From an uncultured Anaerolineales bacterium (GTDB lineage Bacteria; Chloroflexota; Anaerolineae; Anaerolineales; UBA11858), in the NCBI GenBank assembly GCA_964621835.1, contig CAZUMA010000002.1, positions 179,584 through 243,583 of the forward strand: a stretch of DNA of 64,000 nt, read 5' to 3'. A program made the translations under genes and the position numbers. Positions 40,479 through 61,145 of the stretch are shown here, piece after piece; within the stretch, counting starts at the first letter, position 1; every line of letters begins with the position of its first letter. Under the pieces are notes generated by a model. The model searched no databases. It had not been told where the DNA came from and saw only the letters and a program-made list of their open reading frames with translations.

Positions 40479-41849
40479 CTAGAGATGGAAGAAAAAACGC
40501 ACCAATGCTTCGATCCCTTTTGAGAAGGTCGGCAGGTGGAGCCGCTCGTTGGGACTGTGCATGTGATCGCCAGGTAAGCTAAAACCGATATTCACCGCGT
40601 CCACCCCCAGCTCCCGCTGGACGTGGACGACGACAGGAACACTTCCCCCCTCACGTTTGAAAATTGGCCGAACGCCCCAGGTTTCCTCAGCAGCTTTGAC
40701 ATAGGCTTGAATCCAGGGGGAGCTTCTATCGCTGATCACAGGAAAATCTGTGGACATGGTGGTCAGCTCCCAGCTGACGGTCTCCGGAAGGTGCTCTTGA
40801 AGGTAGCTGCGGAATTGTTTTTCAACTTCGCGGGGATCCTGTTCAGGGACCAACCTGCAGGAAATCTTGGCCATGGCGTATGCGGGCAGAACAGTCTTTT
40901 GACCTTCTCCAATAAAACCAGAATAGAGGCCGTTGATCTCCAGCGTTGGCCTTGCTCCTACTCGCTCTAGAGGTGTGTACCCCGCCTCCCCCCACAGGCT
41001 GCTCACGCCTGTTTGGAGTTTGAAAAAATCCTCATCGATGGGAAGCCGGCTGAGTTCCTCCCTTTCTTCCTCATCAAGCGGCAGCACTTTCTCATAAAAT
41101 CCCGGCAGGGCAACCCGGCCGTCAGGATCATGGAGCCCTGACAGCGCATCGGTCATCACCTGGGCTGGATTATGAATAACCCCTCCGAACACACCGGAAT
41201 GAAGGTCATGGTTAGGGCCTTGAATCCGGAGTTCAAAATAAGCGATTCCCCGGAGGGCATAAGTGATTGTTGGATGGTCCGGTGAAAGCATTCCTGTATC
41301 AGGATTAAGGAAGAAATCGCAGGCCAGCAGCTCCTGGTTCTCCGGGATGAATGTTGCCAGGTAGGACCCTCCAATTTCCTCCTCTCCCTCAATCAGGAAT
41401 TTGATATTTACCGGCAGCGTTCCGGTTGCCTGAATTGCCTCTACAGCACTGAGGCAGGCGATGATCTGACCTTTCATGTCAGTGGTCCCCCGACCGAATA
41501 TATTCTCCCCCTGCACCGTGGCGGTAAATGGATCCGTGTTCCACTCCTCCCGTGGGTCTTCTGGCTGGACGTCATAATGTCCGTAGATCAGCACGGTTGG
41601 CGCGTTGTTTCCGGCAGCCAGGTTTTCAGCATAGACGATCGGATGCTTCGGGGTGGGATGAATACTGGCCTCGGTCATCCCGACCCGGAGCAGTTCATCC
41701 TTCAACCAATCAGCTGCCTTCTGGATGTCCTTGTGATGATCCGGGTCGGTGGATATCGAGGGAATACTGACAAGGGAAGACAAGCTTTCAAGCTGCTGTT
41801 CCCGATGATCGTTGATAAATTCAAGTGCTTTCTGAAGATGGTCGGACAT
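40479..41849 (-). CDS. M20-family metallopeptidase (dipeptidase / deacylase)
   Basis: LIYGHYDVQP, GRGTTDMKG, EGEEEIGG metal-binding motifs. Confidence 0.85.
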   Translation of the reverse strand: MSDHLQKALEFINDHREQQLESLSSLVSIPSISTDPDHHKDIQKAADWLKDELLRVGMTEASIHPTPKHPIVYAENLAAGNNAPTVLIYGHYDVQPEDPREEWNTDPFTATVQGENIFGRGTTDMKGQIIACLSAVEAIQATGTLPVNIKFLIEGEEEIGGSYLATFIPENQELLACDFFLNPDTGMLSPDHPTITYALRGIAYFELRIQGPNHDLHSGVFGGVIHNPAQVMTDALSGLHDPDGRVALPGFYEKVLPLDEEEREELSRLPIDEDFFKLQTGVSSLWGEAGYTPLERVGARPTLEINGLYSGFIGEGQKTVLPAYAMAKISCRLVPEQDPREVEKQFRSYLQEHLPETVSWELTTMSTDFPVISDRSSPWIQAYVKAAEETWGVRPIFKREGGSVPVVVHVQRELGVDAVNIGFSLPGDHMHSPNERLHLPTFSKGIEALVRFFFHL

Positions 41850-42119
41850 TGATCCTTTCCTCCAAGCATCAAAGTAGATAAACTCGAAAAACCTGGCTAG
41901 ATTGTACCGCAGCTTTTTATAAAAACGTGGAAAGGGATCGATCTGTGCTGCCAGGATTCAGAGGACTCTGGATCTCTGGTGCTGGATTGGGAGACTTCTT
42001 GTGAGAACAGGATTAAACTTGTGATTAAAATCACCGTGGAGGAAGTGCGTTTTTTTTGATCTTGGGTTATGATTAATTTTCATGGAGTTTCTCATATTAA
42101 TCATTGGATAGGACAGACT

Positions 42120-43028
42120 ATGAATTTATTTCAGGAATACCTGCAGCCAACAACGGTGAAAGAAGCCCTGGAGCAGCTATCAGCTGCGCAAGGAACAACA
42201 GCTGTGGTCGCTGGAGGGACAGATTTGCTGCTGGATATCCGGCAGGCGCGCCACCCTGCTGTGGATGTCATGGTGGATGTCTCCGCGGTGGAAAAAATGC
42301 GCAGGATTGCCCGGGAAGGTGATTTTATCTATCTGGGGGCAGCCGCCACGCATAAGGAGATCATCTCCCATCCCCTCCTCCTGGAACATGCCCAATGTGT
42401 TGTGGAGGGCTGCGGTTTGATCGGCGGTCCCCAGGTAAGAAATGTCGCCACCATTGGCGGGAATGTCGCTCATGCCCTGCCGGCCGGGGATGGGACAGTC
42501 TCCCTGCTGGCGTTGGACGCCGAGGCTGAATTGGCTTCAAAAGAGGGAAGCCGGTGGGAGCCGCTTCTGGAGATCTTCGATGGGCCGGGACGTGTCAAAT
42601 TTGACAGGAAGGAAACGCTGGTTGTTGGGTTTCGATTTCCTACAAAGCAAACCGGAGAGGCGTCCAGCTTCCATCGGGTGATGCGCCCGCAGGGTGTGGC
42701 GATCGCCATTTTAAATATGGCCTGTTGGGTCAGGGTAAAAGATAGCATCCTGGAAGACATCCGCCTATCCTGCGGTCCGGCTGGCCCCCGACCCTTCCGG
42801 GCTTTTCAAACAGAGCAGGCACTGAAAGGGAACGATCTCCACGGGGATTTTTTCCAGGAAGCCTGTGAAGTCTTAGCCGGGGAGGTCAGTTTGCGAACCA
42901 GTGCCAACAGGGCCACTAAAGAATACCGGCATCACCTGCTGCCAGTACTGCTGAGGCAGGTGCTTGAAACCGCTGTATCTAGAAGTATCGGCGATTCCTA
43001 CATACTTAAAGGCGAAGACAATGACTGA
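42120..43028 (+). CDS. Xanthine-dehydrogenase-family FAD-binding (CoxM-like) subunit, module A
   Basis: VVAGGTDLLLDIR and the IGGNVAHALPAGD FAD-binding region, plus a C-terminal CO_deh_flav_C-like part. I place the start at the ATG at 42120. Confidence 0.85.
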   Translation: MNLFQEYLQPTTVKEALEQLSAAQGTTAVVAGGTDLLLDIRQARHPAVDVMVDVSAVEKMRRIAREGDFIYLGAAATHKEIISHPLLLEHAQCVVEGCGLIGGPQVRNVATIGGNVAHALPAGDGTVSLLALDAEAELASKEGSRWEPLLEIFDGPGRVKFDRKETLVVGFRFPTKQTGEASSFHRVMRPQGVAIAILNMACWVRVKDSILEDIRLSCGPAGPRPFRAFQTEQALKGNDLHGDFFQEACEVLAGEVSLRTSANRATKEYRHHLLPVLLRQVLETAVSRSIGDSYILKGEDND

Positions 43029-45792
43029 ACTTACTTGTTGGGTAAATGGAAAAAAGGAAACTGTTTCTGTTGAATCTGGAGAGATGCTCTCCGATGTGCT
43101 GCGGTACAAACTTGGATTAACCGGGACCAAGATAGCCTGCAGTGAATCTGAGTGCGGTTCTTGCACGGTGCTTATTGATGATGTGCCTGTATTATCCTGC
43201 AACTATCCCGCTCTGAAAGCCCAGGGCAAACATGTGATTACGATCGAAGGATTGGCTGAGAACGGGCAGCTTCATCCTCTCCAGGAGGCATTTATCAAAC
43301 ATGGAGCTGCCCAATGCGGCTTTTGCACGCCCGGGCAGATCATGACAGCGGCAGCGCTGCTGCATGACAACCCCGCTCCCTCCCGGGAGGATATTGAATA
43401 CGCCCTGAATGATACGCTCTGCCGCTGTGGTGCGTATCCCGCGATCACCAACGCGATCCTGGCAGCTGCGGATCATCTCAATCACGGCACGCCGATTGAT
43501 TTTCCCAAGCTCGCCTTTGAAGGAGAGCTGAATGTTGTCGGCCAGGTGGTGAAACGACCGGAAGCGGCCGAAAAAGTCACTGGAGAGGCGATCTATACAG
43601 ATGACATTACATTCCCGGGGATGCTCTTTGGCGCGACCCTGCGGGCGGGAATTCCTCATGGGCGGGTGGTTAAAATTAACACGACCAAAGCAGAGCAGCT
43701 GGATGGGGTTGAAGCGGTCCTGACTGCAGAGGATATCCCGGGCAGGGTTAACCACGGTCTGGTCATCCAGGATTGGCCGGCGCTTGTCGGTGTTGGAGAA
43801 AAAGTCCGCTATATTGGTGATGCAGTGGCGCTTGTTGCTGCCCGGACGGAAAAAATTGCCCGGCAGGCTCTAATGCTGATTGAGGTTGTGTATGACGAGC
43901 TCCCCGTGGTCACGGACCCGGTCGCAGCCCGGGATCCTCAAGCACCCAAGGTGCATGAGTCCGGAAATCTCCTCAAGCACATCAAGGTCAACAAGGGAGA
44001 CATTGAGAAAGGTTTTGCGGAGTCTGAGATTGTTCTGGAAGATACATTCTGGATGCCCACCTATGAGCATGCCTTCATGGAGCCGGAATGCAGTATTGCC
44101 CGCCCGACAGATGACGGTCGGATGGAAATCTATGTCGGTTCTCAGATCCCTTATGCGGATCGGGACCAGGTTGCAGCTGCCCTCGGGGTTCCTGAGGAAC
44201 AGGTCAGAGTCCGCAGTCCGCTGGTCGGTGGAGGGTTTGGGGGGAAAGAAGATATTGCCGGCCAGATCCATGCTGCCCTGCTGGCCCGGTCGACCCGTAA
44301 GCCGGTAAAAATCCTCTATGACCGCCATGAAAGCCTCCTCGTCCATCCAAAACGGCACGCAACCCAAATTACCGTGAAGTTGGGGTTGCTGCGCGACGGC
44401 ACGATCCACGCTGCCCAAACAGAACTCTATGGGGATACCGGCGCTTACGCCTCGCTGGGAACGAAAGTTATGGGTCGGGCGACCACCCATTCCACAGGAC
44501 CGTACGTGGTTCCCCATGTAAAAATTGATTGTTTCGCGATGTACACTAACAATCCACCCGCGGGAGCATTTCGAGGGTTCGGGGCTTTGCAGGCGAATTT
44601 TGCGATTGAGGCAATGATGGATCAAGTTGCCGAAGAGCTGCAGATCGACCCGATTGAACTGCGCCGGAAAAATGCGCTCCGCACCGGTTCCATTACCAAT
44701 ACCGGCCAGCACCTAAAAGAAAGTGTTGGACTGCTCGAATGTATTGATAAAACGGTCGCAGCAATGCGGGTTCATACTCCTCAAGGAGATCTCTTTTCTT
44801 CCCGTGCTGTGGAAGGTCAACCTCAGAAACGAAGAGCCTGGGGATTTGCTCTGGCCTTCAAGAATACCGGGCTTGGAGAAGGGGCGCCGGATAAAGCCAG
44901 CGCAGAAGTCGAGCTCTTAGAAGATGGGGCTGCCGAGGTTCGGACCTCCTCAGCGGAGATTGGTCAGGGCCTGGTTACGGTGCTGCAAATGGTCACTGCG
45001 GAAGAATTGGGTATGGAGCTTGATCAGGTGAAAGTTCTCTTATCAGACACCGACCTCACCCCGGATGGGGGGCCCACAACCGGCTCCCGCCAAACATATA
45101 TCTCCGGGAACGCAGCCCGGTTTGCCGCAATCGGACTCAGGGAATCAATGAAATCTACCCTGGCCGAAAAATTCGACACACCCCCGGATCGCATACAGTT
45201 TGCAGGGGGACGGGTCCAGGTGAACGGCACCACCCTTTCCTACCGCGAGGTGGCTGAGGCAATGCGCGCGGAAGGACGGGAACCGAGAGTTATGTATGAG
45301 TATTGGGCCCCAGAGACCACCCCGCTGGGGGAGCCTGGAGACAAGCATTTTGCTTACTCCTTTGCGGCCCAGGCTGTGGAAGTCGAGGTGGATCTGAACA
45401 CAGGAGAGGTCAAGGTGATCCGGGCGATTGCTGCTACAGATGTCGGCACAGCCATTAACCCCCTGGGACTGCAGGGACAGGTTGAGGGCGGAATGATCAT
45501 GGGGCTTGGACATGCTTTGACCGAGGAATTCATCCTGGATGAGGGTCGGGTAGTCACGGATCATTTGGCCCGCTACCGGATGCCTTCCATCAAGCATGTG
45601 CCGAAGGAGATAAACGTGATCATTGTCGAGGATCCCACGACAGAAGGTCCTTACGGTGCAAAAGGGGTGGGAGAAATCTCCACCATGCCGGTGTCTCCTG
45701 CAGTAGTCAATGCCGTGTACAACGCAACCGGCATTCGGTTTCACAGGGTCCCGATCGACCAGGATTGGCTGGCGATGCAGTTGAATTCCTAG
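43021..45792 (+). CDS. Fused [2Fe-2S] (CoxS-like) and molybdopterin-binding (CoxL-like) subunit, module A
   Basis: CSESECGSCTV, QCGFCTPGQIM, CRCGAYP, then LVGGGFGGKED and AKGVGEIS. The ATG at 43021 overlaps the upstream gene by 8 nt. Confidence 0.88.
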   Translation: MTELTCWVNGKKETVSVESGEMLSDVLRYKLGLTGTKIACSESECGSCTVLIDDVPVLSCNYPALKAQGKHVITIEGLAENGQLHPLQEAFIKHGAAQCGFCTPGQIMTAAALLHDNPAPSREDIEYALNDTLCRCGAYPAITNAILAAADHLNHGTPIDFPKLAFEGELNVVGQVVKRPEAAEKVTGEAIYTDDITFPGMLFGATLRAGIPHGRVVKINTTKAEQLDGVEAVLTAEDIPGRVNHGLVIQDWPALVGVGEKVRYIGDAVALVAARTEKIARQALMLIEVVYDELPVVTDPVAARDPQAPKVHESGNLLKHIKVNKGDIEKGFAESEIVLEDTFWMPTYEHAFMEPECSIARPTDDGRMEIYVGSQIPYADRDQVAAALGVPEEQVRVRSPLVGGGFGGKEDIAGQIHAALLARSTRKPVKILYDRHESLLVHPKRHATQITVKLGLLRDGTIHAAQTELYGDTGAYASLGTKVMGRATTHSTGPYVVPHVKIDCFAMYTNNPPAGAFRGFGALQANFAIEAMMDQVAEELQIDPIELRRKNALRTGSITNTGQHLKESVGLLECIDKTVAAMRVHTPQGDLFSSRAVEGQPQKRRAWGFALAFKNTGLGEGAPDKASAEVELLEDGAAEVRTSSAEIGQGLVTVLQMVTAEELGMELDQVKVLLSDTDLTPDGGPTTGSRQTYISGNAARFAAIGLRESMKSTLAEKFDTPPDRIQFAGGRVQVNGTTLSYREVAEAMRAEGREPRVMYEYWAPETTPLGEPGDKHFAYSFAAQAVEVEVDLNTGEVKVIRAIAATDVGTAINPLGLQGQVEGGMIMGLGHALTEEFILDEGRVVTDHLARYRMPSIKHVPKEINVIIVEDPTTEGPYGAKGVGEISTMPVSPAVVNAVYNATGIRFHRVPIDQDWLAMQLNS

Positions 45793-46214
45793 CGTTTTCA
45801 GGGCAGGGTTCATCGTTCCCTTTGCCATAATTTTTCCGGATAGCTAACTGGAAAACGGATCTGGAAGCGGATTACCAGGAATTGGAAGGATTGGAGGGGG
45901 ATCGTTCAGAAACGGTCAATCGTGGTACAATAAAACCAACAATGGATCGGTGGTCGTTGGGCTTATGGAAGAAGCTCAACGGCGTTGGGAAGAACCTGAC
46001 GAAAAGTGCTGCCGTCCTCTTAGGAGACTGATTTCGCCGATCCGATGACCAACGCAGTAGTCTGTTTTGCTGTCTTTCGAAGAAGTTGCTGGGGGAGATT
46101 GTTCGCTGTACACCAATCCAAACCTGCCGTTGGGCTCAACCACAGTTCCTGGAATTGTGGTTTATTTTTTTCCAGGATTTCCGGCGAAAATGCGATGTTT
46201 GGTGGGGAGGGATC

Positions 46215-46724
46215 ATGATCTGCCTACCATTCAATTTCCCGGGGTTGATCTATCGCAGTCCCATGCCTTTTGGGCCTTATGACCGCAGTGGTGTCTGGCA
46301 GACTTATCAGGAGAGAGACATTGACCTGGTGGTGGTGCTCACAGAACCCTTTGAAAACAGGACGTATGCCAAAATAGACCTGCCCGAATTTTACCGCAGC
46401 CAGGGTTTGGACGTAATTTGCCTGCCAGTCCCTGATTTCCAGATCCCCCAGGACCGGGATGCCTGGGAAGAAGGCCTGGAGGAAAGCCTTCGATATCTAC
46501 AGAGGGGGATGAATGTTGCTGTCCACTGCCTGGCGGGATTAGGGCGCACCGGGATGTTTTTAGCCTGCCTGGCGGTGCATTCGCTTTCCCTGACCGGGGC
46601 GCAAGCTGTCAGGTGGGTTCGGGAGCGGGTGCCTGGGGCGATTGTAAACAAGCGTCAGGAGGACTTCTTGATTGCCTACAAACCTGAAGCTTTTAAACCA
46701 CAGAAGGGTGGCGGTGTTTCCTGA
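46215..46724 (+). CDS. Cys-based protein tyrosine / dual-specificity phosphatase
   Basis: CX5R(S/T) signature VAVHCLAGLGRTG. The ATG at 46215 is preceded by GGGGAGGG. Confidence 0.8.
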   Translation: MICLPFNFPGLIYRSPMPFGPYDRSGVWQTYQERDIDLVVVLTEPFENRTYAKIDLPEFYRSQGLDVICLPVPDFQIPQDRDAWEEGLEESLRYLQRGMNVAVHCLAGLGRTGMFLACLAVHSLSLTGAQAVRWVRERVPGAIVNKRQEDFLIAYKPEAFKPQKGGGVS

Positions 46725-46766
46725 TCAGGATCGATATTCAATATTTTTAAGAGAGGAGAAACCACG

Positions 46767-48107
46767 ATGATCATCAAAAATGCCAGGATCATCACCTGGG
46801 AAGAGGAAAATCGCATTCTCGAGGACAGTGATCTAAGGATACAAAACGGTGTGATAAAAAACATGGGTCCGAAGCTTGAGAAATCAGCGGCTGACGAGGA
46901 GGTTTTTGATGCCCGGGGGCAGTATCTCATGCCTGGAAATCTCTGTGTTCACACCCATTTCTACGGAGCATTTGCTCGCGGGATGGGAATTCCCGGCGAG
47001 GCGCCCAAAGATTTTCCCCAGATTCTTGAGAAGCTTTGGTGGCCGCTTGATATGGCCTTAGATGAGAAGGGAGTGCGTTATTCTGCGCTCGTATTTGCTG
47101 TAGATGCGATCAAGAATGGAACGACTACCCTCTTTGACCATCACGCCTCACCAAACTTCATCGATGGCTCCCTCGATGTGATTGGCAATGTGCTGGAGCA
47201 GGCCGGTTTACGGGGTGTTCTATGCTATGAGGTCACCGATCGCAACGGGAAGGACGGGGCCAAGGCCGGGATTCAGGAAAACGTGCGCATGATTAAAGCA
47301 GTCGCTGACTCACCCAAATTGGGTGCAGCATTCGGACTTCATGCCAGTTTGACCCTCGATGATGATACCCTTGAAGCCTGCCGGGATGCAGTGGGAAGTG
47401 AAGCAGGTTATCACATTCACGTCGGGGAGCATCAGGCGGATGAGTATGACAGCCTCAACCGCTGTGGACTGCGGGTGGTGGACCGATTGAAAAAGTTTGA
47501 TATTCTTGGGCCAAAAACAATTGTCGCGCATGGGGTTCATATTGATATGCAGGAAGCCGTCCTGCTGGCAGAGTCGGGTACCTGGCTGACCCACCAACCT
47601 CGCTCGAACATGAATAATGCGGTTGGGGCAGCGGCAGTGGAGGATTTTCTGCGCCTGGGGATTCCGGTTGGCATCGGGACAGATGGCTTCTATCACGCCA
47701 TGTGGGAGGAGTGGAAAACAGCCTACTTCCTTCACAAAGTTCATCATCTTGATCCGCGGAGGATGAATGCGATGGATATCATCCAAATGGGAGTCCGCAA
47801 CAACGCTGCGCTTGCAAATCTCTACCTCCCGGAAGTCAAGCTTGGGGTGATTGAAGAAGGAGCAGCCGCAGATTTAATCTTTGTAGACTATCATCCTCAC
47901 ACCCCCCTGAACGCTGGGAATTTACCCTGGCAGATCCTCTTTGGTTTTCAGGAAAGCATGATTACCTCCACGATGGTGGCTGGGGAATTCCTGATGAAAG
48001 ACAGGGAGCTGATGACCCTGGATGAGGAACAAATCAGCGCCGAAGCCAGGGCGCTGGCGCCGGAAATCTGGCAGCGGTATTCAACATATGTTGGCAGGTA
48101 CAGCTGA
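46767..48107 (+). CDS. ssnA: SsnA-type putative aminohydrolase (amidohydrolase superfamily)
   Basis: CVHTHFYGAF, LWWPLDMALDE, LFDHHASPN, QPRSNMNNAVG, GIGTDGF. By my recollection these align closely with E. coli SsnA (LWWRLDRALDE, DHHASP, RSNMNN, GTDG). Confidence 0.8.
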   Translation: MIIKNARIITWEEENRILEDSDLRIQNGVIKNMGPKLEKSAADEEVFDARGQYLMPGNLCVHTHFYGAFARGMGIPGEAPKDFPQILEKLWWPLDMALDEKGVRYSALVFAVDAIKNGTTTLFDHHASPNFIDGSLDVIGNVLEQAGLRGVLCYEVTDRNGKDGAKAGIQENVRMIKAVADSPKLGAAFGLHASLTLDDDTLEACRDAVGSEAGYHIHVGEHQADEYDSLNRCGLRVVDRLKKFDILGPKTIVAHGVHIDMQEAVLLAESGTWLTHQPRSNMNNAVGAAAVEDFLRLGIPVGIGTDGFYHAMWEEWKTAYFLHKVHHLDPRRMNAMDIIQMGVRNNAALANLYLPEVKLGVIEEGAAADLIFVDYHPHTPLNAGNLPWQILFGFQESMITSTMVAGEFLMKDRELMTLDEEQISAEARALAPEIWQRYSTYVGRYS

Positions 48108-48165
48108 AAGGTTGTGCGTGATGGATCCCTGAAAATCTCATTTTATTTGTGAAGGAGCAGCTGGT

Positions 48166-48816
48166 ATGTCGGAAAAGCCTATCATCGCAATCTTAGGTGG
48201 TACAGGACACGAAGGAAATGGATTGGCCCTGCGCTGGGCATCCAATGGATATCCTGTGATCATCGGCTCACGGAATGAAGAGAAAGCACGAAAGACAGCA
48301 GGTGAACTGAATGGAATCCTGGGAGAGGAGCTGATCCGGGGGATGGAGAACGCAGCAGCGGCAAAGGAGGCGGAGATCAATGTCCTGACAGTTGTTCAAT
48401 CCGCTCATCAAGCGGCAGTCACAGCTCTAAAAGAGGAGCTCCAGGGGAAGATATTGATTGATGCGACTGCCCAAATCTCTTTCCCAGATCCAAAACCTCC
48501 CGCCCCGCCATCGGCAGCCCGCAGGGCGCAGGACATCCTCGGGGAGGGCGTCCCCGTCGTGGCCGCCTTCCAGAATATCCCTGCCCATGCCTTGAAAAAC
48601 CTGGATCAGGAGCTGGAGAGTGATGTCCTGGTAAGCGCAGATCACCGGGAACATGCTGAAATCGTGATGGAATTGATCCAGGGAGCCGGCATGAACTCAT
48701 ACTACATTGGCGACCTGGATATGGCGATTACCATCGAAGGGTTGACTGCCGTGCTGGTCAAAATTAATAAATTCAATGATATCAAGCATGCCAGTGTTCG
48801 GATTGTGGGATCCTGA
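48166..48816 (+). CDS. npdG: NADPH-dependent F420 reductase (F420H2:NADP+ oxidoreductase)
   Basis: IAILGGTGHEGNGLALRWASNGYPVIIGSR Rossmann N-terminus, typical of the Fno/NpdG family. Confidence 0.8.
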   Translation: MSEKPIIAILGGTGHEGNGLALRWASNGYPVIIGSRNEEKARKTAGELNGILGEELIRGMENAAAAKEAEINVLTVVQSAHQAAVTALKEELQGKILIDATAQISFPDPKPPAPPSAARRAQDILGEGVPVVAAFQNIPAHALKNLDQELESDVLVSADHREHAEIVMELIQGAGMNSYYIGDLDMAITIEGLTAVLVKINKFNDIKHASVRIVGS

Positions 48817-48827
48817 AAAGGAATTGA

Positions 48828-49610
48828 ATGGTAAGAAGCAGAGATCCCCTTGTTTTAACACCGCTGGCAGGGCTTCCTCTGGTGCAGCCGGGTGACAATC
48901 TAGCAGAGCTGCTCCTTGCGGCCTTGGCTGATAATAAAATCTCTCTCCAGGCAGGAGATATCCTTGCGGTGGCTCAAAAAATCGTTTCCAAAGCCGAGGG
49001 ACGGCAGGTGGATTTGCGATCAGTCACACCTTCAAGACGTGCAAGGCGCTTGGCCCAAGAAACGGGCAAAGATCCGCGGGAAACTGAGCTGATCCTCCAG
49101 GAGAGCACCGCGATCCTTCGGAAACGCCCCGGGCTGATTATTGTGGAACATCGTCTGGGGTTTATCTGTGCGAATGCGGGGATCGACCGTTCGAATGTTC
49201 AAGCTGGTCAGGACCCGGAAGGCGAATGGGTGCTGCTGCTCCCGGAAAACCCGGATCAGTCGGCAGCAAACCTCCGGGATCGGATGCGTGATGCCGCTGG
49301 CGGGGAAATTGGGGTGCTGATCATTGATTCCCATGGTAGAGCCTGGCGGGAAGGAACGGTTGGAATATCCATCGGTTATGCCGGGATCCCCGGAATCATC
49401 GACTTGCGGGGAAGCCCAGACTTGTTTGACTATCAGCTCAAGATCACTGAAATTGCTGCTGTGGACGAACTGGCGGCAGGTGCCTCCCTGATGATGGGTC
49501 AGGCGGATGAAGGAACCCCTGTGGTCCATGTCCGCGGATTTCCCTATCCGTTACGAGAGGGATCTTTCCAGGAACTTCCCCGGAAAATTTCCGAGGATTT
49601 ATTCCGTTAA
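48828..49610 (+). CDS. cofE: Coenzyme F420-0:L-glutamate ligase (stand-alone CofE, no FbiB C-terminal domain)
   Basis: GDILAVAQKIVSKAEGR and FICANAGIDRSNV. 260 aa. Confidence 0.85.
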   Translation: MVRSRDPLVLTPLAGLPLVQPGDNLAELLLAALADNKISLQAGDILAVAQKIVSKAEGRQVDLRSVTPSRRARRLAQETGKDPRETELILQESTAILRKRPGLIIVEHRLGFICANAGIDRSNVQAGQDPEGEWVLLLPENPDQSAANLRDRMRDAAGGEIGVLIIDSHGRAWREGTVGISIGYAGIPGIIDLRGSPDLFDYQLKITEIAAVDELAAGASLMMGQADEGTPVVHVRGFPYPLREGSFQELPRKISEDLFR

Positions 49611-49692
49611 ACAAGATGAATTTACCCTGGGCTGGACGAAGTGGGTCGAATGGAATTTTTCAGATGCAAACGGGAAATGAGGGCATGATGAC

Positions 49693-50640
49693 ATGTTGAG
49701 GAAAACTACCGCATTGGCCGGGGGTGTGGGGGGAGCGAAGCTGGCAGATGGCCTGGCGCATGTTCTCCGGGATGTCAGCGTGGTCGTCAATACTGGAGAT
49801 GATTTTGAGCATTTTGGCCTGTGGATCAGCCCTGATCTGGATACCGTTTGCTACAATTTAGCTGGGATCGAAAATGAGCAGACCGGATGGGGAAGGGTGG
49901 GGGAGTCCTGGGAAACTTTGCAGGAAATTCAGGTCCTGGGCGGGCCGGATTGGTTCAAGCTCGGCAACCGGGATTTGGCAACGCACCTGGAGCGGACTCG
50001 GCGATTGGATGCGGGGGAGAAGCTTCATGAGATCACGGCAAGGTTCTGTGCCGCCTGGGGGGTGGAAGCCCGGGTTTTCCCCATGAGCAATGACCCGGTA
50101 CCCACTATGGTCTCCACACAATGGGGAGAGATCTCCTTCCAACGATACTTTGTCGAACTGGCTTGTGAACCGGTTGTATCTGGTTTCAGGTTTGCTGGGG
50201 TTGAGAAATCCCGCCCCGCACCGGGAGTGATTTCTGAGATTGAAAAAGCAGATTTGGTGGTCATCTGTCCCTCCAACCCATGGGTTAGTATTGATCCAAT
50301 CTTAGCTGTCCCTGGCATCCGTTCTGCGCTGAAAGATCCCCTGGTTATTGCGGTATCTCCGATCATCAGCGGTCGGGCCGTACGCGGGCCAGCAGCGAAA
50401 ATGTACCGGGAAATGGGATTTAATCCCTCGGCAGCTGCGGTTGCTGAGCACTATGGAGATATCGTGGATGGATTCATTATCGATGAAGAGGATGCAGGCC
50501 TGAAAGAGGAAATCCTGGACCAGGCAGATCATCCCCTGCAGGTGTTGATAACAAATACCTGGATGCGAAATCGAGAGGATAGAATCCGCGTAGCAGAAGA
50601 TGTGCTGAAATTTTATGAAGTTTTGAAGAAGGAGGTTTAG
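49693..50640 (+). CDS. cofD: 2-phospho-L-lactate transferase (CofD/FbiA)
   Basis: ALAGGVGGAKL and VNTGDDFEHFGLWISPDLDT. Confidence 0.9.
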   Translation: MLRKTTALAGGVGGAKLADGLAHVLRDVSVVVNTGDDFEHFGLWISPDLDTVCYNLAGIENEQTGWGRVGESWETLQEIQVLGGPDWFKLGNRDLATHLERTRRLDAGEKLHEITARFCAAWGVEARVFPMSNDPVPTMVSTQWGEISFQRYFVELACEPVVSGFRFAGVEKSRPAPGVISEIEKADLVVICPSNPWVSIDPILAVPGIRSALKDPLVIAVSPIISGRAVRGPAAKMYREMGFNPSAAAVAEHYGDIVDGFIIDEEDAGLKEEILDQADHPLQVLITNTWMRNREDRIRVAEDVLKFYEVLKKEV

Positions 50641-50642
50641 GA

Positions 50643-51248
50643 ATGGCTTTATGGGCGATCGTCCCTGTCAAGCCCTTAAGAAGGGGAAAATCCCGCCTGG
50701 CAGCTGTGATGTCCGCCGATGATCGAGCTGAGCTAAATCAATTTTTACTGGAACATACGATCCAGGTATTGAACCAGGTGGAGGATATTGAAAGCATCCT
50801 GGTGGTCAGCAGAGATCCGGCAGCACTGGCAATCGCCAGGGATATGGGAGCCCGAACCGTGCTTGAAAACGGAAGCCCTGATCTTAACCTTGCCTTGACC
50901 CGGGCAACCGAGGTGGCGAAATCCTATGAGACCCGGGGGGTGCTGGTCATCCCGGCGGATTTACCGCGCTTGGGGGTTGAGGATGTCAACAAGATGCTTG
51001 CTTATCGAGAGCAAGCTCCCGTGGTTGTGGTGGCCCCGGATCGGGAAAAAAAAGGCACAAATGCTTTATTCATCTGTCCTTTAGGATTAATTCGGTATGA
51101 TTATGGAGAGGGATCTTTCGCAAAACACTGTCAGCAAGCCCAGCGGGTCGGTGCGCAGCTGGAGATCTGTGATTTGCCATCCTTGGCCCTGGATCTGGAT
51201 GAACCCGATGATCTGAACTTGATGAAGACCGATATTAGGGTTGAGTGA
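50643..51248 (+). CDS. cofC: Phospholactate/phosphoenolpyruvate guanylyltransferase (CofC/FbiD)
   Basis: LWAIVPVKPLRRGKSRL and the VIPADLP motif. Confidence 0.85.
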   Translation: MALWAIVPVKPLRRGKSRLAAVMSADDRAELNQFLLEHTIQVLNQVEDIESILVVSRDPAALAIARDMGARTVLENGSPDLNLALTRATEVAKSYETRGVLVIPADLPRLGVEDVNKMLAYREQAPVVVVAPDREKKGTNALFICPLGLIRYDYGEGSFAKHCQQAQRVGAQLEICDLPSLALDLDEPDDLNLMKTDIRVE

Positions 51249-51292
51249 AAAGATAATTAATATTTGGTATCTTAGACAACTGGAGGAAAGAT

Positions 51293-52291
51293 ATGAGTAA
51301 CCCTGTTGCACTGTATTTGCAGGACGCCCACGATTTGCGGGATGGTTTAGATTATGTTCAATATGCAGAGGAGAAGGGATTTGACGCGGTCTGGCAGGCA
51401 GAATCCCGCTTAGTCCGGGATGCAGTTGTCCCGATGGCTGCCTATGCCGCGGTCACAGAGAAGATCAAGGTGGGCTCTGGAGTGATCAACAACTGGACCC
51501 GGAATATTGGTCTGCTGGCGTCGACGTTTCTAACTCTGGATGATTTGGCGCCGGATCGAATTATCTGTGGAATTGGCGCCTGGTGGGATCCCCTGGCTGA
51601 AAATGTGGGGATCAATCGTCGGAAGCCGCTGACTGCGATGAGAGAAACTGTAGAGATCCTGCGGCGGTTGCTGAATATGGAGAATGTCACCTTTGAAGGT
51701 GAGTTTGTTCAGGTCAAGAGCATTGAGCTGGATGTGGTTCATGGACGAAGAGAGCCCCGGAATGTCCCGATCATGATTGGTGCGACCGGGCCGAAAATGC
51801 TTCAATTAGCAGGGGAAATCGCCGATGGTGTGGTCCTGAATTACTGTGTTCCTGTGGAATACAACGACATGGCCATGGAAAATATTGAACTTGGTGCAAA
51901 AAAAGCAGGCCGATCGGTTGAGGAGATTGACCGTCCCCAGCTTGTGGTTTGTTCAGTGGCGGAGGAACAGGAAGAAGCCTTGGACTCCAGTCGGGAGCTG
52001 CTGACCCAGTATCTGGCGCAGCAGCCGCATATTGCCAAAGCGAGCGGCGTCTCCGAGGAGATTGTGGCGGAAATCCAATCCATCCTTGGCTGGCCGGCCA
52101 CTCATGAGCAGATTCAGGCTGCAAAACATCTGGTACCGGATGATTTGATTCACCGCATTACAGCTTCTGGAACTCCTGAGGAAGCAAAGGCCAAGGTGGA
52201 TCAGTATCGGGAGCATGGCTGCACCACGCCAATCCTTTACCCGGTTGGTGGAGATGTCAAACTCTTGGTGGATACATTTGCGGATTACTGA
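51293..52291 (+). CDS. Luciferase-like (LLM) oxidoreductase, probably F420-dependent
   Basis: [10 protein letters not shown] and [24 protein letters not shown] are typical of the LLM/Mer-like family. F420 dependence is inferred from context only. Confidence 0.7.
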
Positions 52292-52377
52292 TTCTGCTCC
52301 ATACCAACCCCGGTGAAGCTTTCCTGGGAAATGACCGGAGGGTTTTTCCGGGGTACCAAGCATCAGGAAAGGTACGC

Positions 52378-53154
52378 ATGATTGTTGAATATCATCGCCC
52401 AACCACGATAAAGGAAGCCGTATCCCTGCTGAATCGAAAGCAGCCAGTGACCGTTCCCATGGGAGGAGGTCTCTTTCTGAACGAAACCAGCAGGGAAGAT
52501 ATCGCAGTAGTGGATATCCAGGATTTGCCACTTGGCCAGGTGGATCTGAAGGGAAAAAAGGTTCACCTTGGAGCTGGTGTCACGCTGCAGGAGATGATCC
52601 TGCTGCCTGAACTCCAGCCGGCTGTGCGGGACAGCATCCTTCATCAGGATACCTATAATCGTCGACATGTGGCCACACTCGGGGGTGCTCTGGCTGCCTG
52701 CACGGGCCGCAGCCCGCTGGCGGTTGTGATTTTGGTGCTGGATGCGGTCCTGGAGCTGCATGGGCCGGAAGGAGAGGTTGATCAGGAGTTCTTTGGAGAA
52801 CTTCTTCCCCTCCGCGAGGAGCATCTGGCAGGAAGGTTGATCACCCGTGTGACCCTCCCCAGGGATGTCCTGGTCTCTTATCATTTTGTCGCCCGTTCCC
52901 CCGCTGACCAGCCTATCGTGAGTGCTGCTGTAGCAGCCTGGCCCTCAGGACGGATCCGGGTTGTCCTGGGAGGCACATGTTCCCAACCCCGGTTGGTTTT
53001 GGATGGACCGGATGGGGAAGGGGCGGTCCAGGCTGCAGAGGATGCCTACAGCCAGGTGGAGGATCCCTGGGCCAGCGCGGAATACCGCTCGCACACGGCT
53101 GGGATCCTGGTTGGGCGGTGTTTGGCTGAAATTGAAAAACTTTCGGAGAGGTAG
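52378..53154 (+). CDS. ygfM: Short FAD-binding subunit of the xanthine-dehydrogenase family (YgfM-like), module B
   Basis: HRPTTIKEAVSLL...VTVPMGGG...LGGALAA. At 258 aa it is similar in length to E. coli YgfM. Confidence 0.7.
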   Translation: MIVEYHRPTTIKEAVSLLNRKQPVTVPMGGGLFLNETSREDIAVVDIQDLPLGQVDLKGKKVHLGAGVTLQEMILLPELQPAVRDSILHQDTYNRRHVATLGGALAACTGRSPLAVVILVLDAVLELHGPEGEVDQEFFGELLPLREEHLAGRLITRVTLPRDVLVSYHFVARSPADQPIVSAAVAAWPSGRIRVVLGGTCSQPRLVLDGPDGEGAVQAAEDAYSQVEDPWASAEYRSHTAGILVGRCLAEIEKLSER

Positions 53155-53155
53155 A

Positions 53156-56100
53156 ATGCGTATGTTGAACATAGAGCTCAAGATCAATCAACAAGAATAC
53201 ACTCTCCAGGCGGCTCCCGGTGAGAGGCTGTACGCTGTCCTCAGGCGCCTGGGGTTTGCTGGAGTGAAATTTGGGGATGAACAGGGGTTATCCGGGGCAG
53301 ACACTGTGCTGCTGGACGGCAAACCTATCAATGCGTATATGTACCTTGCAGCGCAGGCGGAAGGCCACCACATCGAAACCGTTGAATCCCTGGGAGAGCA
53401 TCCTCAGTTAGGCTGGAAGGAGAGTCACGGGCTGCACACCCTCCAGGAGGAATTTGTCAAGACAGGAGCGATCCAATGCGGCTACTGCACCCCCGGTCAG
53501 CTGCTGACCGCCCTGGAGCTGCTCAGACGGAATCCGGATCCCAGCGAGGAAGAGGTTCGGGATGCGCTTTCCGGGGTGCTTTGCCGCTGCACCGGGTATG
53601 TAAAACCGGTTCAGGCAGTCCTCCGGGCAGCAGCACGGCTGCGCGGGGATGATGTGCCTCCCATCGATGAACCTATGAAGGCTCCGCCTGAGTGGACGGG
53701 CACAGAACCTGAGGAGCCCATCCCCCCGGTAAAAACAGTTCAGCCGGATGGAACGGTGTTAACGGCAGAGAAAGTGATTTCCAACCTGGTTGTGACCACG
53801 GAGCCTGAAGCCTGGCAGCAGGTGGGAAAACCCAAACAAAAAGTGGATGCTGTAAAGCTCGTGCAGGGAAAACCGGCTTTCGCGGCTGATTTTGAGCGCC
53901 GGGACCTTCTTCACGCCAAAGTACTGTTAAGTCCCCATGCACACGCAGTGATTAAGTCAATCGATCCCTCCAAGGCACTGGAGATCCCGGGGGTCGCTGC
54001 AGTGCTGACCCATCACGATATTCCCCGGGTGGTTTACTCCACAGCTGGTCAATCCGACCCGATCCCGGGTCCGCTGGATTGTTTCTCTCTGGATCGAAAA
54101 GTCCGCTTCGTGGGTGACCGGGTGGCGTTTGTTGCTGCGGAGACGGAAGAAATTGCCACCCGCGCGCTGGAAGCGATTGAGGTGGAATATGAGCTGCTTG
54201 AGCCCATATTAGATTCCCGCGAGTCCATGAAGCCAGGAGCGCCAATCATCCATGATGAAGAAGAGTATGTAAATTTTGCGGATTCAAATCCACGGAAAAA
54301 TCTGGCAGCTGAAATCCGGATTGATATTGGCGAGGTCGAGACAGGGTTTGAGGAAGCCGAGAGGATTTTTGAGGCAGAATACGAAGTCCCCAAAGTTCAG
54401 CAGGCTCACATTGAACCGCATGCTGTGGTCACCTACTGGGATGAGGATGATCGGCTGGTGATTCGAACCAGCACCCAGGTGCCTTTTCACGTTCGGCGGA
54501 TGATCGCCCCGGTGCTGGGTTTACCGATCAAGAGAATTCGGGTGATCAAGCCCAGGATCGGTGGTGGGTTCGGGGGGAAGCAGGAAATGCTCGTGGAAGA
54601 TGTCGCTGCCCACCTGACCATCGCTACGGGCCGGCCGGTGCAGTATATCTATACCCGGGAGGAGGAATTCATTGCGGCCCGATCCCGTCATCCAATGCGG
54701 GTGAGGATGAAAACCGGGGTGAAAATGGATGGAACCATCACAGCCAATGAGATGTATGCCCTCAGTAATACCGGCGCCAATGGGGCCCACGCCCTGACCG
54801 TAACCGGGAATACCGGGCATAAGTCCATGGCGCTGTATGTCGGCAGCGGGGAGTACCGAAAATCTCCCAATATCCGCTTTTATGCGGATGTCGTTTACAC
54901 CAATACACCTCCTTCGGGCGCCTACAGGGGGTATGGAGTTCCCCAGGGCTTCTGGCCTTTAGAGCGCCACATGGAAAAAATTGCCCGGGAATTGGATTTA
55001 GATCCCCTCGAGTTCCGCCTTAAAAATGCTCTCCGGGCGGGAGAACTGCATCCATTCAGCACGGCCTGGAGCGAAGGAAGAGAACCAAAACCGGAGATCA
55101 TCCAGACCAATGGCCTGGCGGAGTGCGTCCGAAAGGGTAAGCAGGCAGTGGACTGGGAGGGAAAAACTGCCGATGACAGCTGGCGCACGGTTCCCGGGAA
55201 GCCGTATTTGCGCCGTGGTATTGGGGCAGCTCTGGTAATGCAGGGGACGGCGATCCCCTATCTTGATATGGGCGGAGCAAGCTTGAAATTGAATGATGAT
55301 GGTTCATTCAATTTGCTGGTTGGAGCAACGGATCTGGGGACAGGCTCAGACACCGTTTTAGGCCAGATGGCAGCAGAAATCCTCGGTGTTCCCCTGGAGG
55401 ATTTAATTGTCTATTCCTCTGATACAGATTTCACCCCCTTTGATAAAGGGGCCTACGCTTCCAGCACCACCTATATTTCCGGGGCGGCAGTGGTGGACGC
55501 GGCCAATCAGGTAGCTGAGCGCCTCCGCGAACGGGCGGTGATGATTTTGCGGGAGCGGGATCCGGATGCCTCCTACAAACCAGAGGAAATTGAGCTATCA
55601 AACCGGTGTGCTATTGCCCAGGATGGGAAAGCCGTGTCAATTGAAGAGATCGCCCTGCATTCGCTGCACCATGCTGATCAGGAGCAGATTATGGCGGTTG
55701 GTTCATTCATGTCCCCTGTGTCCCCCCCGCCTTTTGCAGCTCAGTTTGCTGAGGTCACGGTAGATGTGGAAACCGGGCAGGTTGTTGTGGATCGCCTGGT
55801 GATGGCTGTTGATGGGGGGATGATTGTCAATCCAATCACAGCCTCCGGACAGATTGAAGGGGGGATGACCCAGGCGCTTGGATATGCGGTCTGTGAGGAG
55901 ATGGTTTATGATGAGTTGGGCAGAGCCCGGGAGAAGGATTTTCGGGATTACCATATATTCCAGGCTGATGAGATGCCAGAGCTGACCACGATATTTATTG
56001 AGACTTTTGAACCATCCCATCCCTTTGGTGTCAAAGCCGTGGCGGAGATTCCCATGGATGGCGTCGCACCGGCCGTGGGAAATGCGGTGTTTGATGCCTG

Positions 56101-56176
56101 TGCGGTGGATATTGATCAAAATCCGGTCACCCCGGAGAAAATCTGGAGAGCGCTCCAGGCTGCGCAAAGCAGCTGA
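53156..56176 (+). CDS. xdhD: XdhD-like fused ferredoxin-like / molybdopterin-binding subunit with a degenerate first Fe-S site, module B
   Basis: The start ATG at 53156 follows GGAGAGG. The N-terminus KFGDEQGLSGADTVLLDG lacks the Cys ligands. QCGYCTPGQLL and LCRCTGY are retained. KPRIGGGFGGKQE and a long stretch (STQVPFHVRR...YTREEEFIA) resemble E. coli XdhD from memory. Confidence 0.8.
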   Translation: MRMLNIELKINQQEYTLQAAPGERLYAVLRRLGFAGVKFGDEQGLSGADTVLLDGKPINAYMYLAAQAEGHHIETVESLGEHPQLGWKESHGLHTLQEEFVKTGAIQCGYCTPGQLLTALELLRRNPDPSEEEVRDALSGVLCRCTGYVKPVQAVLRAAARLRGDDVPPIDEPMKAPPEWTGTEPEEPIPPVKTVQPDGTVLTAEKVISNLVVTTEPEAWQQVGKPKQKVDAVKLVQGKPAFAADFERRDLLHAKVLLSPHAHAVIKSIDPSKALEIPGVAAVLTHHDIPRVVYSTAGQSDPIPGPLDCFSLDRKVRFVGDRVAFVAAETEEIATRALEAIEVEYELLEPILDSRESMKPGAPIIHDEEEYVNFADSNPRKNLAAEIRIDIGEVETGFEEAERIFEAEYEVPKVQQAHIEPHAVVTYWDEDDRLVIRTSTQVPFHVRRMIAPVLGLPIKRIRVIKPRIGGGFGGKQEMLVEDVAAHLTIATGRPVQYIYTREEEFIAARSRHPMRVRMKTGVKMDGTITANEMYALSNTGANGAHALTVTGNTGHKSMALYVGSGEYRKSPNIRFYADVVYTNTPPSGAYRGYGVPQGFWPLERHMEKIARELDLDPLEFRLKNALRAGELHPFSTAWSEGREPKPEIIQTNGLAECVRKGKQAVDWEGKTADDSWRTVPGKPYLRRGIGAALVMQGTAIPYLDMGGASLKLNDDGSFNLLVGATDLGTGSDTVLGQMAAEILGVPLEDLIVYSSDTDFTPFDKGAYASSTTYISGAAVVDAANQVAERLRERAVMILRERDPDASYKPEEIELSNRCAIAQDGKAVSIEEIALHSLHHADQEQIMAVGSFMSPVSPPPFAAQFAEVTVDVETGQVVVDRLVMAVDGGMIVNPITASGQIEGGMTQALGYAVCEEMVYDELGRAREKDFRDYHIFQADEMPELTTIFIETFEPSHPFGVKAVAEIPMDGVAPAVGNAVFDACAVDIDQNPVTPEKIWRALQAAQSS

Positions 56177-56187
56177 CTTCAAAAATC

Positions 56188-56221
56188 AGCCCAGGGAAGA
56201 GATTTCCTGGGCTTTTTATTT
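56188..56221 (+). terminator. Intrinsic terminator after the xdhD-like gene
   Basis: AGCCCAGG-(10 nt)-CCTGGGCT followed by TTTTTATTT. Confidence 0.85.
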
Positions 56222-57696: not shown

Positions 57697-57718
57697 ACCT
57701 GCCGGATTGGAATCAGTT

Positions 57719-58519: not shown

Positions 58520-58544
58520 TCAAACATGCTCTGGAGTTGCAGAA

Positions 58545-61131: not shown

Positions 61132-61145
61132 ATTGAGAGAATCTT

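Follow-up and report, generated by a model that had tools for sequence, protein, structure and literature searches.

Why would a bacterium keep the genes for assembling and recycling the deazaflavin cofactor F420 between ssnA and the ygfM/xdhD pair of a molybdenum enzyme locus? The question is raised by a block of nine genes at 46215–56176 of contig CAZUMA010000002.1 from an uncultured Anaerolineales bacterium (Chloroflexota), positions that refer to the whole 64,000-nucleotide stretch analyzed here, which we call the window. On the balance of the evidence we favor the view that this locus encodes, in an Anaerolineales form, the upper half of the reductive, anaerobic breakdown of uric acid via 2,8-dioxopurine. 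F420 appears functionally embedded in the pathway, most probably through an LLM-family oxidoreductase that replaces the reductase YgfK and not as the partner of the molybdenum enzyme itself. The urate pathway is already published, and an earlier paper has remarked on the F420 substitution; what is new here is the presence of F420 tail-synthesis genes and Fno inside the operon, the pairing of distant LLM relatives with ring-opening amidohydrolases, and a leader RNA followed by an attenuator.

In the scheme we propose, the XdhD-like molybdenum/2Fe-2S protein would act with its YgfM-like FAD subunit to remove the C6 oxygen of urate, giving 2,8-dioxopurine. The Mer-like LLM would then move a hydride from F420H2 to 2,8-dioxopurine and dearomatize the ring, a step carried out by YgfK in E. 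coli and by UacX in Clostridia, and SsnA would hydrolyze the reduced ring, drawing the unfavorable reduction forward. Fno/NpdG would regenerate F420H2 from NADPH, while CofC, CofD, and CofE would add the F420 tail to the deazaflavin head group FO, itself made or acquired elsewhere. The genes would be expressed as one transcription unit running from a promoter near 45923 through the leader RNA and the attenuator to the terminator at 56188, and a xanthine dehydrogenase (XDH)-like pair encoded just upstream would probably feed in urate from xanthine or hypoxanthine.

Gene content and conservation of the locus

Profile searches of the open reading frames (ORFs) in the window recovered nine genes on the + strand, each lying closely behind the last (gaps, in order, of 42, 58, 11, 82, 2, 44, 86, and 1 nt). 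They encode a phosphatase, SsnA, Fno/NpdG, CofE, CofD, CofC, the LLM, a short FAD subunit, and a fused 2Fe-2S/Mo subunit, with families assigned by the curated NCBIfam cut-offs together with Pfam (Table 1). The CofE is of the short type, matching only positions 12–243 of the 449-position FbiB-type model and lacking the FbiB C-terminal nitroreductase domain. The phosphatase matched no NCBIfam family in the profile search, but it has an intact HCX5R(T) signature (HCLAGLGRTG, of the form HCxxGxxRT), its ATG at 46215 is preceded by the ribosome-binding site GGGGAGGGA, an identical 169-aa protein appears in the public gene call, and a phosphatase at 41–60% identity lies upstream of SsnA in most related loci.

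The hairpin at 56188–56213 with its T-run is the top terminator match within the 41.5–60.5 kb region, and a simple sigma-70 scan of the same region found no sigma-70-like site on the + strand inside the block. Terminator-like matches within the block are all weak (5–7 pairs) and all fall in coding sequence. The nine genes look like one transcription unit, from which we infer a single transcript. The 64-kb window encodes neither a dehydro-F420 reductase nor an FO synthase (CofG/CofH or FbiC), and with no FO synthase there the head group FO would be made elsewhere in the genome or scavenged. A radical-SAM gene at 3861–5204 was considered as CofG/CofH and rejected; it is of the PA0069/Rv2578c type and encodes the sole radical-SAM protein of the window.

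We used the SsnA protein to scan one genome per species, which yielded 43 loci, all from metagenome-assembled genomes of Anaerolineales or other Chloroflexota (SsnA 56–84% identical), and then searched these loci with the window proteins by tblastn. All nine genes occur in the same order in 24 Anaerolineales species loci, and 34 species loci extend far enough to judge the LLM, which 33 of them have. No other protein of the operon is as well conserved (76–92% identity), and the YgfM-like subunit is the fastest evolving, at 39–67%; the lowest identities among the loci are 56% for SsnA, 41% for Fno, and 39% for the YgfM-like protein. The upstream neighbors, a divergent M20 peptidase gene and the XdhB-like/XDH-like pair, are kept in some clades and missing in others, so the nine-gene core has been kept while its surroundings changed. 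These comparisons support the F420 genes as a conserved part of the ssnA/xdhD locus and no accident of one genome.

Within a deeper clade (L033, L029, L041, L043, L044, and L104), the operon holds three extra genes that are absent from the window. One encodes a PPOX-class F420-dependent oxidoreductase that matches TIGR03618 above its cut-off, another a nitroreductase resembling the FbiB C-terminal domain, and the last a hotdog thioesterase (in L033 the inserts lie at 12909–13896 and 16710–17171). The FbiB-C-terminal-like nitroreductase is likely to be a dehydro-F420 reductase.

The original prediction for this locus, which was made from the letters alone, had described nine same-strand genes in this order with gaps of 1–86 nt and a strong closing terminator at 56188–56221, had read them as apparently one operon, and had placed them beside an E. 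coli arrangement in which ssnA, ygfM, and xdhD are contiguous next to ygfK. All of this holds, as does its statement that the window has no YgfK-like subunit, for which we found no homolog. The survey of related neighborhoods that it proposed turned out in its favor. Its family assignments stand above the curated cut-offs for SsnA, CofC, CofD, CofE, and Fno; those for YgfM and XdhD are best matches that fall below them.

A proposed urate pathway with an F420-type reductase

The biochemistry of the pathway has recently been worked out. E. coli XdhD reduces urate to 2,8-dioxopurine (“yanthine”) with NADH and co-purifies with a protein of ~30 kDa, putatively YgfM, and YgfK, or the PydA-like UacX of C. 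difficile, dearomatizes yanthine only if this is coupled to hydrolysis by SsnA (Li et al. 2025, PMC12507026). The same pathway was reported independently, with YgfK as an NADPH:2,8-dioxopurine oxidoreductase (bioRxiv 10.1101/2025.04.24.650524). Li et al. also give one sentence to Chloroflexota, in which, on the basis of SsnA gene neighborhoods, a PF00296 “putative F420-dependent” enzyme is found instead of YgfK/UacX (PMC12507026). The window is an instance of this Chloroflexota variant, combining SsnA, an XDH homolog, and a PF00296 protein with no YgfK or UacX. In the main text of that paper, the variant is covered by the coloring of gene neighborhoods and the one sentence, with no experiment; the embedded cofC, cofD, cofE, and fno, the gene order, and the leader RNA do not figure in that main text.

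We took the E. coli K-12 region of NC_000913.3 as the comparison set; in the fetched region, ygfK, ssnA, ygfM, and xdhD are contiguous. The E. coli cluster (ygfK-ssnA-ygfM-xdhD plus ygeW-ygeX-ygeY-hyuA-yqeA) shares with the window an SsnA ortholog, a fused Mo subunit with a Glu606-bearing insertion, the order ssnA ... ygfM-xdhD, and an FAD subunit of ~258 aa directly upstream of the Mo subunit. It differs in that the window has no YgfK, has five F420-related genes between ssnA and ygfM, has an extra phosphatase gene, and has no HyuA, YgeW, YgeX, YgeY, YqeA, or YqeC nearby; its YgfM-like and XdhD-like proteins fall below the curated thresholds, and a structured RNA leader stands where E. coli uses the sigma-54 regulator YgeV.

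SsnA is 35% identical to E. coli SsnA over its full length and passes both SsnA-specific curated models; we predict that it opens the ring of reduced 2,8-dioxopurine. For the XdhD-like protein the best NCBIfam match is TIGR03313, at 687.7 bits against a cut-off of 1101.9, which is a near tie with the XdhA model NF043082 (670.6 against 780). Direct alignment favors XdhD: residues 3–954 of E. coli XdhD align to it with 541 bits (39.5% identity over 927 residues), compared with 407 bits for E. coli XdhA, and E. coli XdhD scores 263 bits against the upstream XDH of the window. Its N-terminal 2Fe-2S domain and Mo domains are fused in one chain, as in XdhD (normally ~950–1000 aa). An active-site insertion with Glu606 is common to E. 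coli XdhD (AIGEGKAPTSVP) and the XdhD-like protein (AWSEGREPKP) and is missing from both E. coli XdhA and the upstream XDH. Glu606 was picked out as XdhD-specific by Li et al. 2025 (PMC12507026).

The YgfM-like protein is more divergent. Its best match is TIGR03312, and E. coli YgfM (~259 aa) finds no match in the window at E 1e-5, although it aligns weakly (26–30%) to the YgfM-like orthologs of 8 related loci. In size and position the protein corresponds to YgfM, with a stop codon 1 nt before the ATG of the Mo subunit. The labels YgfM and XdhD are best matches below curated thresholds, then, and do not denote family membership by profile score. We predict that the two proteins together form a reductase converting urate to 2,8-dioxopurine.

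If so, one step lacks its usual enzyme. No YgfK or PydA-type/UacX reductase is encoded in the window or in 42 of the 43 related loci, the exception being L044, which is discussed below. Two Pyr_redox_2 genes at 37–39.4 kb were considered as fragments of YgfK and rejected, since both are thioredoxin reductases above cut-off. No counterpart of HyuA, YgeW/UacY, YgeX, YqeA, or YqeC turned up in the window or the 43 loci (tblastn, at least 50% query coverage, within 10 kb), and YgeY shows weak N-terminal similarity to the M20 peptidase of the window, which belongs to an unrelated subfamily; with none of the downstream enzymes nearby, the locus holds only the upper part of the urate pathway. Because YgfK is a separate substrate reductase, the component missing from the window is the dearomatizing reductase, and the LLM is its obvious replacement. 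The reading of SsnA neighborhoods by Li et al. agrees, and the idea of an LLM substituting for YgfK is already in print, as a remark from bioinformatics.

The top NCBIfam matches of the LLM are all F420-dependent LLM families, every one of them below its cut-off (the Mer models NF002619 and TIGR03555 score 187.7 against 276 and 182.5 against 348.7), and FMN-dependent LLM families score at most 38 bits. The nearest solved structures are those of F420-dependent Mer (E 5e-40), followed by Fgd1 and Adf; against PDB sequences, the top 7 matches are F420-dependent Mer and Fgd, and the F420-dependent Adf scores 42 bits. Judged by its closest profiles and structures, the LLM looks F420-dependent and not FMN-dependent. 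The JGI annotation names it methylene-tetrahydromethanopterin reductase, but with scores below the Mer cut-offs such public “Mer” names are not trustworthy. The operon LLMs make up a tight clade set apart from the rest: among the 50%-identity representatives of a sequence library, no further full-length relative is more than 51% identical. We predict that the LLM is an F420H2-dependent 2,8-dioxopurine (yanthine) reductase acting in place of YgfK/UacX.

The gene contexts of eight more distant LLM relatives bear on this prediction. One (46% identical) is translationally coupled to a TRZ/ATZ-type amidohydrolase, another (47%) sits between a HyuA-like and an SsnA-like amidohydrolase, and in a further case (43%) the LLM gene overlaps that of a HyuA-like protein (36% identical to E. 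coli HyuA) and has an IclR regulator after it; the pairs with amidohydrolases are located at L047 130–2519, L049 425–5136, L174 81–2566, and L175. Two of the eight close modules of the form Fno-CofE-(nitroreductase)-CofD-CofC-LLM or CofC-LLM (L172 and L046), and three contexts were uninformative. Near its F420-LLM module, L172 also has an amidohydrolase, XdhC, an XDH-type FAD/Fe-S gene, and a NUDIX gene. Repeated pairing of an LLM with a cyclic amidohydrolase is what would be expected of a reductase whose product is trapped by hydrolysis, the same logic that Li et al. 2025 give for YgfK and SsnA (PMC12507026), and it suggests that reductase/hydrolase pairs acting on heterocycles with the help of F420 form a wider family.

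Several known systems combine parts of this design. In picrate degradation, NpdG recharges F420H2 and an LLM hydride transferase dearomatizes the ring (PMC8498797), which provides a chemical precedent for the role proposed for the LLM. The npd genes for picrate and 2,4-dinitrophenol in Rhodococcus and Nocardioides follow the same Fno/NpdG plus LLM logic, although they belong to another phylum, act on nitroaromatics instead of an oxopurine, and are reported in clusters that contain neither a Mo enzyme nor an amidohydrolase partner nor genes for cofactor synthesis. The Clostridial variant (C. difficile and C. sporogenes, XdhAC-type plus UacX) resembles the window in having swapped the reductase while keeping SsnA and the Mo enzyme. 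There, however, UacX is a dihydropyrimidine-dehydrogenase-like FMN enzyme, probably ferredoxin-fed, and the Mo enzyme has no YgfM subunit, whereas the window retains the FAD subunit and has a TIM-barrel LLM with predicted use of F420H2. Reduction of a ring C=C bond followed by opening with a cyclic amidohydrolase is likewise the strategy of the PydA-PydB pyrimidine pathway, and distant relatives of the window LLM are translationally coupled to HyuA/dihydropyrimidinase-like genes; the PydA-PydB reductase is an FMN/Fe-S/NAD(P)H enzyme, and the reductase of the window is from another family, with F420H2 as its predicted donor. A 2021 review of F420 makes no mention of purine or xanthine (PMC8498797).

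A leader RNA ahead of purine and F420 genes

The upstream XDH gene and the phosphatase gene are 420 nt apart, and an alignment of this gap across loci revealed conserved elements. An extended -10-like element (TGGTACAAT) lies ~10 nt upstream of a structured leader RNA. Upstream of the operon, no + strand promoter came out of the simple sigma-70 scan, and the TGGTACAAT element was recognized by its conservation alone, so we regard it as a putative promoter. The leader consists of three stacked stems (P1-P2-P3), a long and near-invariant 3' junction, GAAAAGUGCUACCGU, and a small variable hairpin. Across the alignment 95.5% of cells pair, and 53 cells are changed on both sides, compared with 14.3 in shuffles, of which 0 of 500 come up to the real count; when the 3' partners are slid as a control, pairing falls to 27–54%. 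Because P1 does not vary, all of the covariation lies in P2 and P3. When the window sequence is folded, the centroid structure again contains P1-P3. The 5' strand could also pair with the conserved junction, in an alternative helix that is mutually exclusive with this fold; this helix is 96.8% pairable, with one covarying pair, which is weak evidence for a switch.

With a covariance model built for this RNA (R1), each of 38 loci, the window and 37 related genome loci, shows exactly one copy, and there is no second copy elsewhere in the window. No Rfam 15 family reaches its gathering threshold in the gap, where the only matches are noise at E above 3, and we found nothing on the motif in the literature. 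A terminator-like hairpin, the presumed attenuator, lies 90 nt downstream of the leader; in related loci its CACAG...CTGTG hairpin and T-run are conserved.

The gene associations of the leader were followed with a pattern scan of metagenome contigs that did not depend on SsnA and returned 80 loci, ~70 of them genuine; ~8 matches in high-GC DNA lacked the 3' half of P1 and were discarded as chance. Immediately after the leader, 42 of the 80 loci have the XDH pair, starting with its XdhB-like or FAD/Fe-S subunit, 19 have the phosphatase, and SsnA and Fno come next in 1 each. In loci with the leader ahead of the XDH pair, the start codon follows directly on the 3' strand of P1, and the phosphatase-SsnA-F420 genes continue on from the pair. 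In two metagenome loci (L078 and L111) a NUDIX hydrolase gene follows the leader, in L078 with a truncated XdhB-like remnant in between. Since one leader RNA precedes either purine genes or the F420 block, purine and F420 genes fall into one regulon.

The leader gives the operon a defined 5' end, and its covarying structure together with an expression platform is the general architecture of a riboswitch, which makes it a credible candidate for an orphan riboswitch. The NMT1-motif xanthine/urate riboswitch and the guanine-riboswitch variants are likewise cis-acting 5' structures before genes of purine oxidation or degradation, but the leader has no detectable similarity to either, having its own P1-P2-P3 stack without linkers and its long conserved 3' junction.

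The role of F420 and the wider locus

The original prediction had cast the Mo enzyme as a hydroxylase that gives its electrons to F420, had taken YgfK for an Fe-S/NAD(P)H subunit of that enzyme, and had considered an F420 link to be undescribed. Published work has overtaken these points: the E. coli homolog XdhD-YgfM reduces urate with NADH (PMC12507026), YgfK is a separate 2,8-dioxopurine reductase (PMC12507026; bioRxiv 10.1101/2025.04.24.650524), and the F420-type replacement in Chloroflexota is stated by Li et al. 2025. F420 could still be the direct redox partner of the YgfM-like/XdhD-like enzyme, with electrons running through Mo, 2Fe-2S, FAD, and F420 or in reverse, Fno linking the system to NADPH, and the LLM in a side role. 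The potentials of F420 and NAD(P)H are similar, and direct coupling is thermodynamically allowed. The five F420-related genes do lie exactly between ssnA and the FAD/Mo genes, YgfK is absent, and the divergence and rapid evolution of the YgfM-like subunit mean that its donor specificity could differ. Against this, E. coli XdhD-YgfM takes electrons from NADH via the same kind of 259-aa FAD subunit, and the operon of the window already includes a dedicated F420-type substrate reductase, the LLM, as its most constrained gene. The nearest precedent for direct coupling is the F420-reducing formate dehydrogenase of methanogens, a Mo/W-pterin enzyme of another family whose Mo-pterin center is coupled to F420 through a dedicated FrhB/FdhB-type subunit (PMC8498797); a Pfam search found no FrhB/FdhB-type F420-binding Fe-S/flavin module in the operon, unlike in formate dehydrogenase and other F420-linked Fe-S enzymes (PMC8498797). 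The metagenome contig L104 has F420 genes adjoining a YgfM-like gene with neither LLM nor SsnA, which would favor direct coupling, but with a DNA methylase at its end the contig appears disrupted and rearranged, and we set it aside. The sequence evidence here neither supports nor contradicts a direct coupling of F420 to the Mo enzyme, which we judge quite improbable.

It is also conceivable, if rather unlikely, that the synteny carries no function, with Fno-CofE-CofD-CofC-LLM being a general F420 operon, its LLM acting on an unrelated substrate, that was inserted between ssnA and ygfM in an ancestor. F420 modules ending in an LLM do occur in distant contigs with no adjacent SsnA or XdhD (L172 and L046), L014 keeps SsnA-YgfM-XdhD without the module, the conserved loci come from one order, and the public annotation of the LLM is that of a Mer. 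An insertion, however, would have interrupted a working operon, yet the gaps are only 1–86 nt and there is no strong internal terminator; the order has been kept even though SsnA falls to 56% and Fno to 41% identity and the upstream flanks have been replaced; purine and F420 genes stand jointly under one leader RNA; and the pathway would otherwise be left without its essential dearomatizing reductase. Independent LLM relatives, moreover, pair with cyclic amidohydrolases, and even in L172 the surroundings include an amidohydrolase, XdhC, and an XDH-type FAD/Fe-S gene. The same chemistry might instead serve another oxidized N-heterocycle, such as another oxopurine, a pterin, or a pyrimidine-like compound, in place of urate. 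This would suit the sub-threshold scores of the XdhD-like and YgfM-like proteins, the lack of HyuA, YgeW, YgeX, and YgeY within 10 kb in any locus, the mere 35% identity of SsnA to its E. coli counterpart, and the several amidohydrolase subfamilies with which related LLMs pair. We nonetheless consider it unlikely, given that SsnA passes both SsnA-specific models, the XdhD-specific insertion with its Glu is conserved, and an XDH-like pair that would produce urate is encoded directly ahead of the operon and, in many genomes, has the same leader RNA.

Several observations weigh against urate reduction through the LLM, the reading we prefer. The substrate could, as noted, be another N-heterocycle, and the XdhD-like and YgfM-like proteins miss the curated thresholds. 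The LLM lies under every curated family cut-off, its F420 dependence is deduced from sequence similarity, and CofG/CofH are absent from the window. All conserved loci come from one order, and their conservation thus partly reflects shared ancestry. In L014, a single species, SsnA-CofC-YgfM-XdhD are kept and the leader RNA is present, with Fno, CofE, CofD, and the LLM missing (9860–10764); this gap is either a true deletion with the genes located elsewhere or an assembly artifact. L044 carries, between CofC and the LLM (15581–18073), an 830-aa fusion protein, unique among ~120 loci, in which a GltD/YgfK-like NAD(P)-binding part is joined to a PreA/PydA-like dihydropyrimidine-dehydrogenase part, which looks like a dearomatizing reductase of the conventional type alongside the LLM. 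Finally, L172 has Fno-CofE-(nitroreductase)-CofD-CofC-LLM with no SsnA or XdhD beside it, and from this free-standing module the LLM could belong to a cofactor module rather than to purine catabolism.

The window is a segment of a bacterial chromosome, with nusA-infB-rbfA-truB-ribF-pnp upstream of the operon. The XDH pair directly ahead of the leader is nearest to selenium-dependent xanthine dehydrogenase; it probably supplies urate from (hypo)xanthine and, in related genomes, probably falls in the same regulon. The M20 gene adjoins the cluster even in loci without the upstream XDH pair, and a role for its product as a ureido-group hydrolase is speculative. Directly after the operon terminator, at 56350–57696, lies a family-II (DHH) inorganic pyrophosphatase gene that is syntenic in nearly all related loci (61–87% identity); the enzyme may remove pyrophosphate from CofC and Mo-cofactor nucleotidylation, or it may be a mere conserved neighbor. 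An XdhC-type maturation factor and a 473-aa fused FAD/2Fe-2S protein follow at 57587–60296 with no Mo subunit gene after them, and then a conserved 109-aa membrane protein, whose ORF was considered as a Mo-subunit remnant and rejected. The same trio occurs in L014, and the XdhC and FAD/Fe-S pair in L172; from their arrangement the XdhC and FAD/Fe-S genes appear to be an orphan electron-transfer module. Right after this module, at 60000–62300, G+C falls to 0.455 over two ORFs without a family match and a sulfotransferase gene, which may be a foreign insertion. Farther away, a thiamine pyrophosphate (TPP) riboswitch at 20274–20381 on the - strand (76 bits, above its gathering score) lies upstream of a thiamine pyrophosphokinase gene (19513–20283) with ABC-transporter genes beyond, and at 23792–26425 an 877-aa ORF joins DHH/DHHA1, two CBS domains, and a poly(A) polymerase/CCA-adding head domain in an unusual fusion.

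Table 1. Features of the operon and its upstream region; positions are those of the window, and paired numbers are score versus cut-off in bits.
Feature	Position	Strand	Matches and remarks
M20-family metallopeptidase/amidohydrolase	40479..41849	-	NF006053 510.2 vs 441; divergent
XdhB-like FAD subunit (42069..43028) and fused 2Fe-2S/Mo subunit (~43030..45792)	42069..45792	+	NF043083 191.8 vs 310; TIGR03311 780.1 vs 830.45
Extended -10-like element TGGTACAAT	45923..45931	+	conserved TGGTA(C/A)AAT, same offset in aligned loci
Structured leader RNA, 107 nt	45942..46048	+	alignment A1, 37 distinct sequences; RNAalifold
Terminator-like hairpin, presumed attenuator	46138..46172	+	11 pairs plus T-run; second-longest stem in region; centroid fold
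DSP/PTP-family phosphatase, 169 aa	46215..46724	+	PF22785/PF22784/PF00782, weak matches only
SsnA-type cyclic amidohydrolase	46767..48107	+	NF005540 499.6 vs 444; TIGR03314 471.2 vs 455.5
NADPH:F420 oxidoreductase Fno/NpdG	48166..48816	+	TIGR01915 182.1 vs 149.8; PF03807
CofE, F420-0:gamma-glutamyl ligase	48828..49610	+	TIGR01916 262.5 vs 180.65
CofD, 2-phospho-L-lactate transferase	49693..50640	+	TIGR01819 310.5 vs 257.45
CofC, guanylyltransferase of F420 tail synthesis	50643..51248	+	TIGR03552 164.9 vs 105
LLM F420-type oxidoreductase, Mer-like	51293..52291	+	best NCBIfam match Mer NF002619, below cut-off
Short FAD subunit, YgfM-like, 258 aa	52378..53154	+	PF00941; TIGR03312 74.4 vs 241.5
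Fused 2Fe-2S + molybdopterin subunit, XdhD-like, 1006 aa	53156..56176	+	PF01799, PF01315, PF02738, PF20256
Intrinsic terminator closing the operon	56188..56221	+	11 pairs, 6 G-C, tail TTTTATTTCA

A stronger version of the proposal, in which the LLM would be the first F420H2-dependent 2,8-dioxopurine reductase with F420 obligatory for the anaerobic breakdown of purines in an environmental lineage that is widespread, and the leader would be a new riboswitch class that senses a purine catabolite (or F420/FO) and switches the whole operon together with its cofactor-synthesis genes, is possible but doubtful. A bolder extension still would have F420H2 also feed the YgfM-like/XdhD-like enzyme, making it the first F420-coupled member of the xanthine dehydrogenase family. 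The leader RNA has an unusually clear gene association, with xanthine dehydrogenase, the urate pathway, and F420 genes, which makes a search for its ligand tractable. If the LLM does act with F420H2 as predicted, it would be a third, mechanistically distinct solution to dearomatization, the hardest reaction of the urate pathway, after YgfK and UacX, and one useful for engineering urate-degrading systems. F420 would then gain a role in central nitrogen and purine catabolism, and the strictly environmental Anaerolineales would have a physiological reason to keep their F420 genes.

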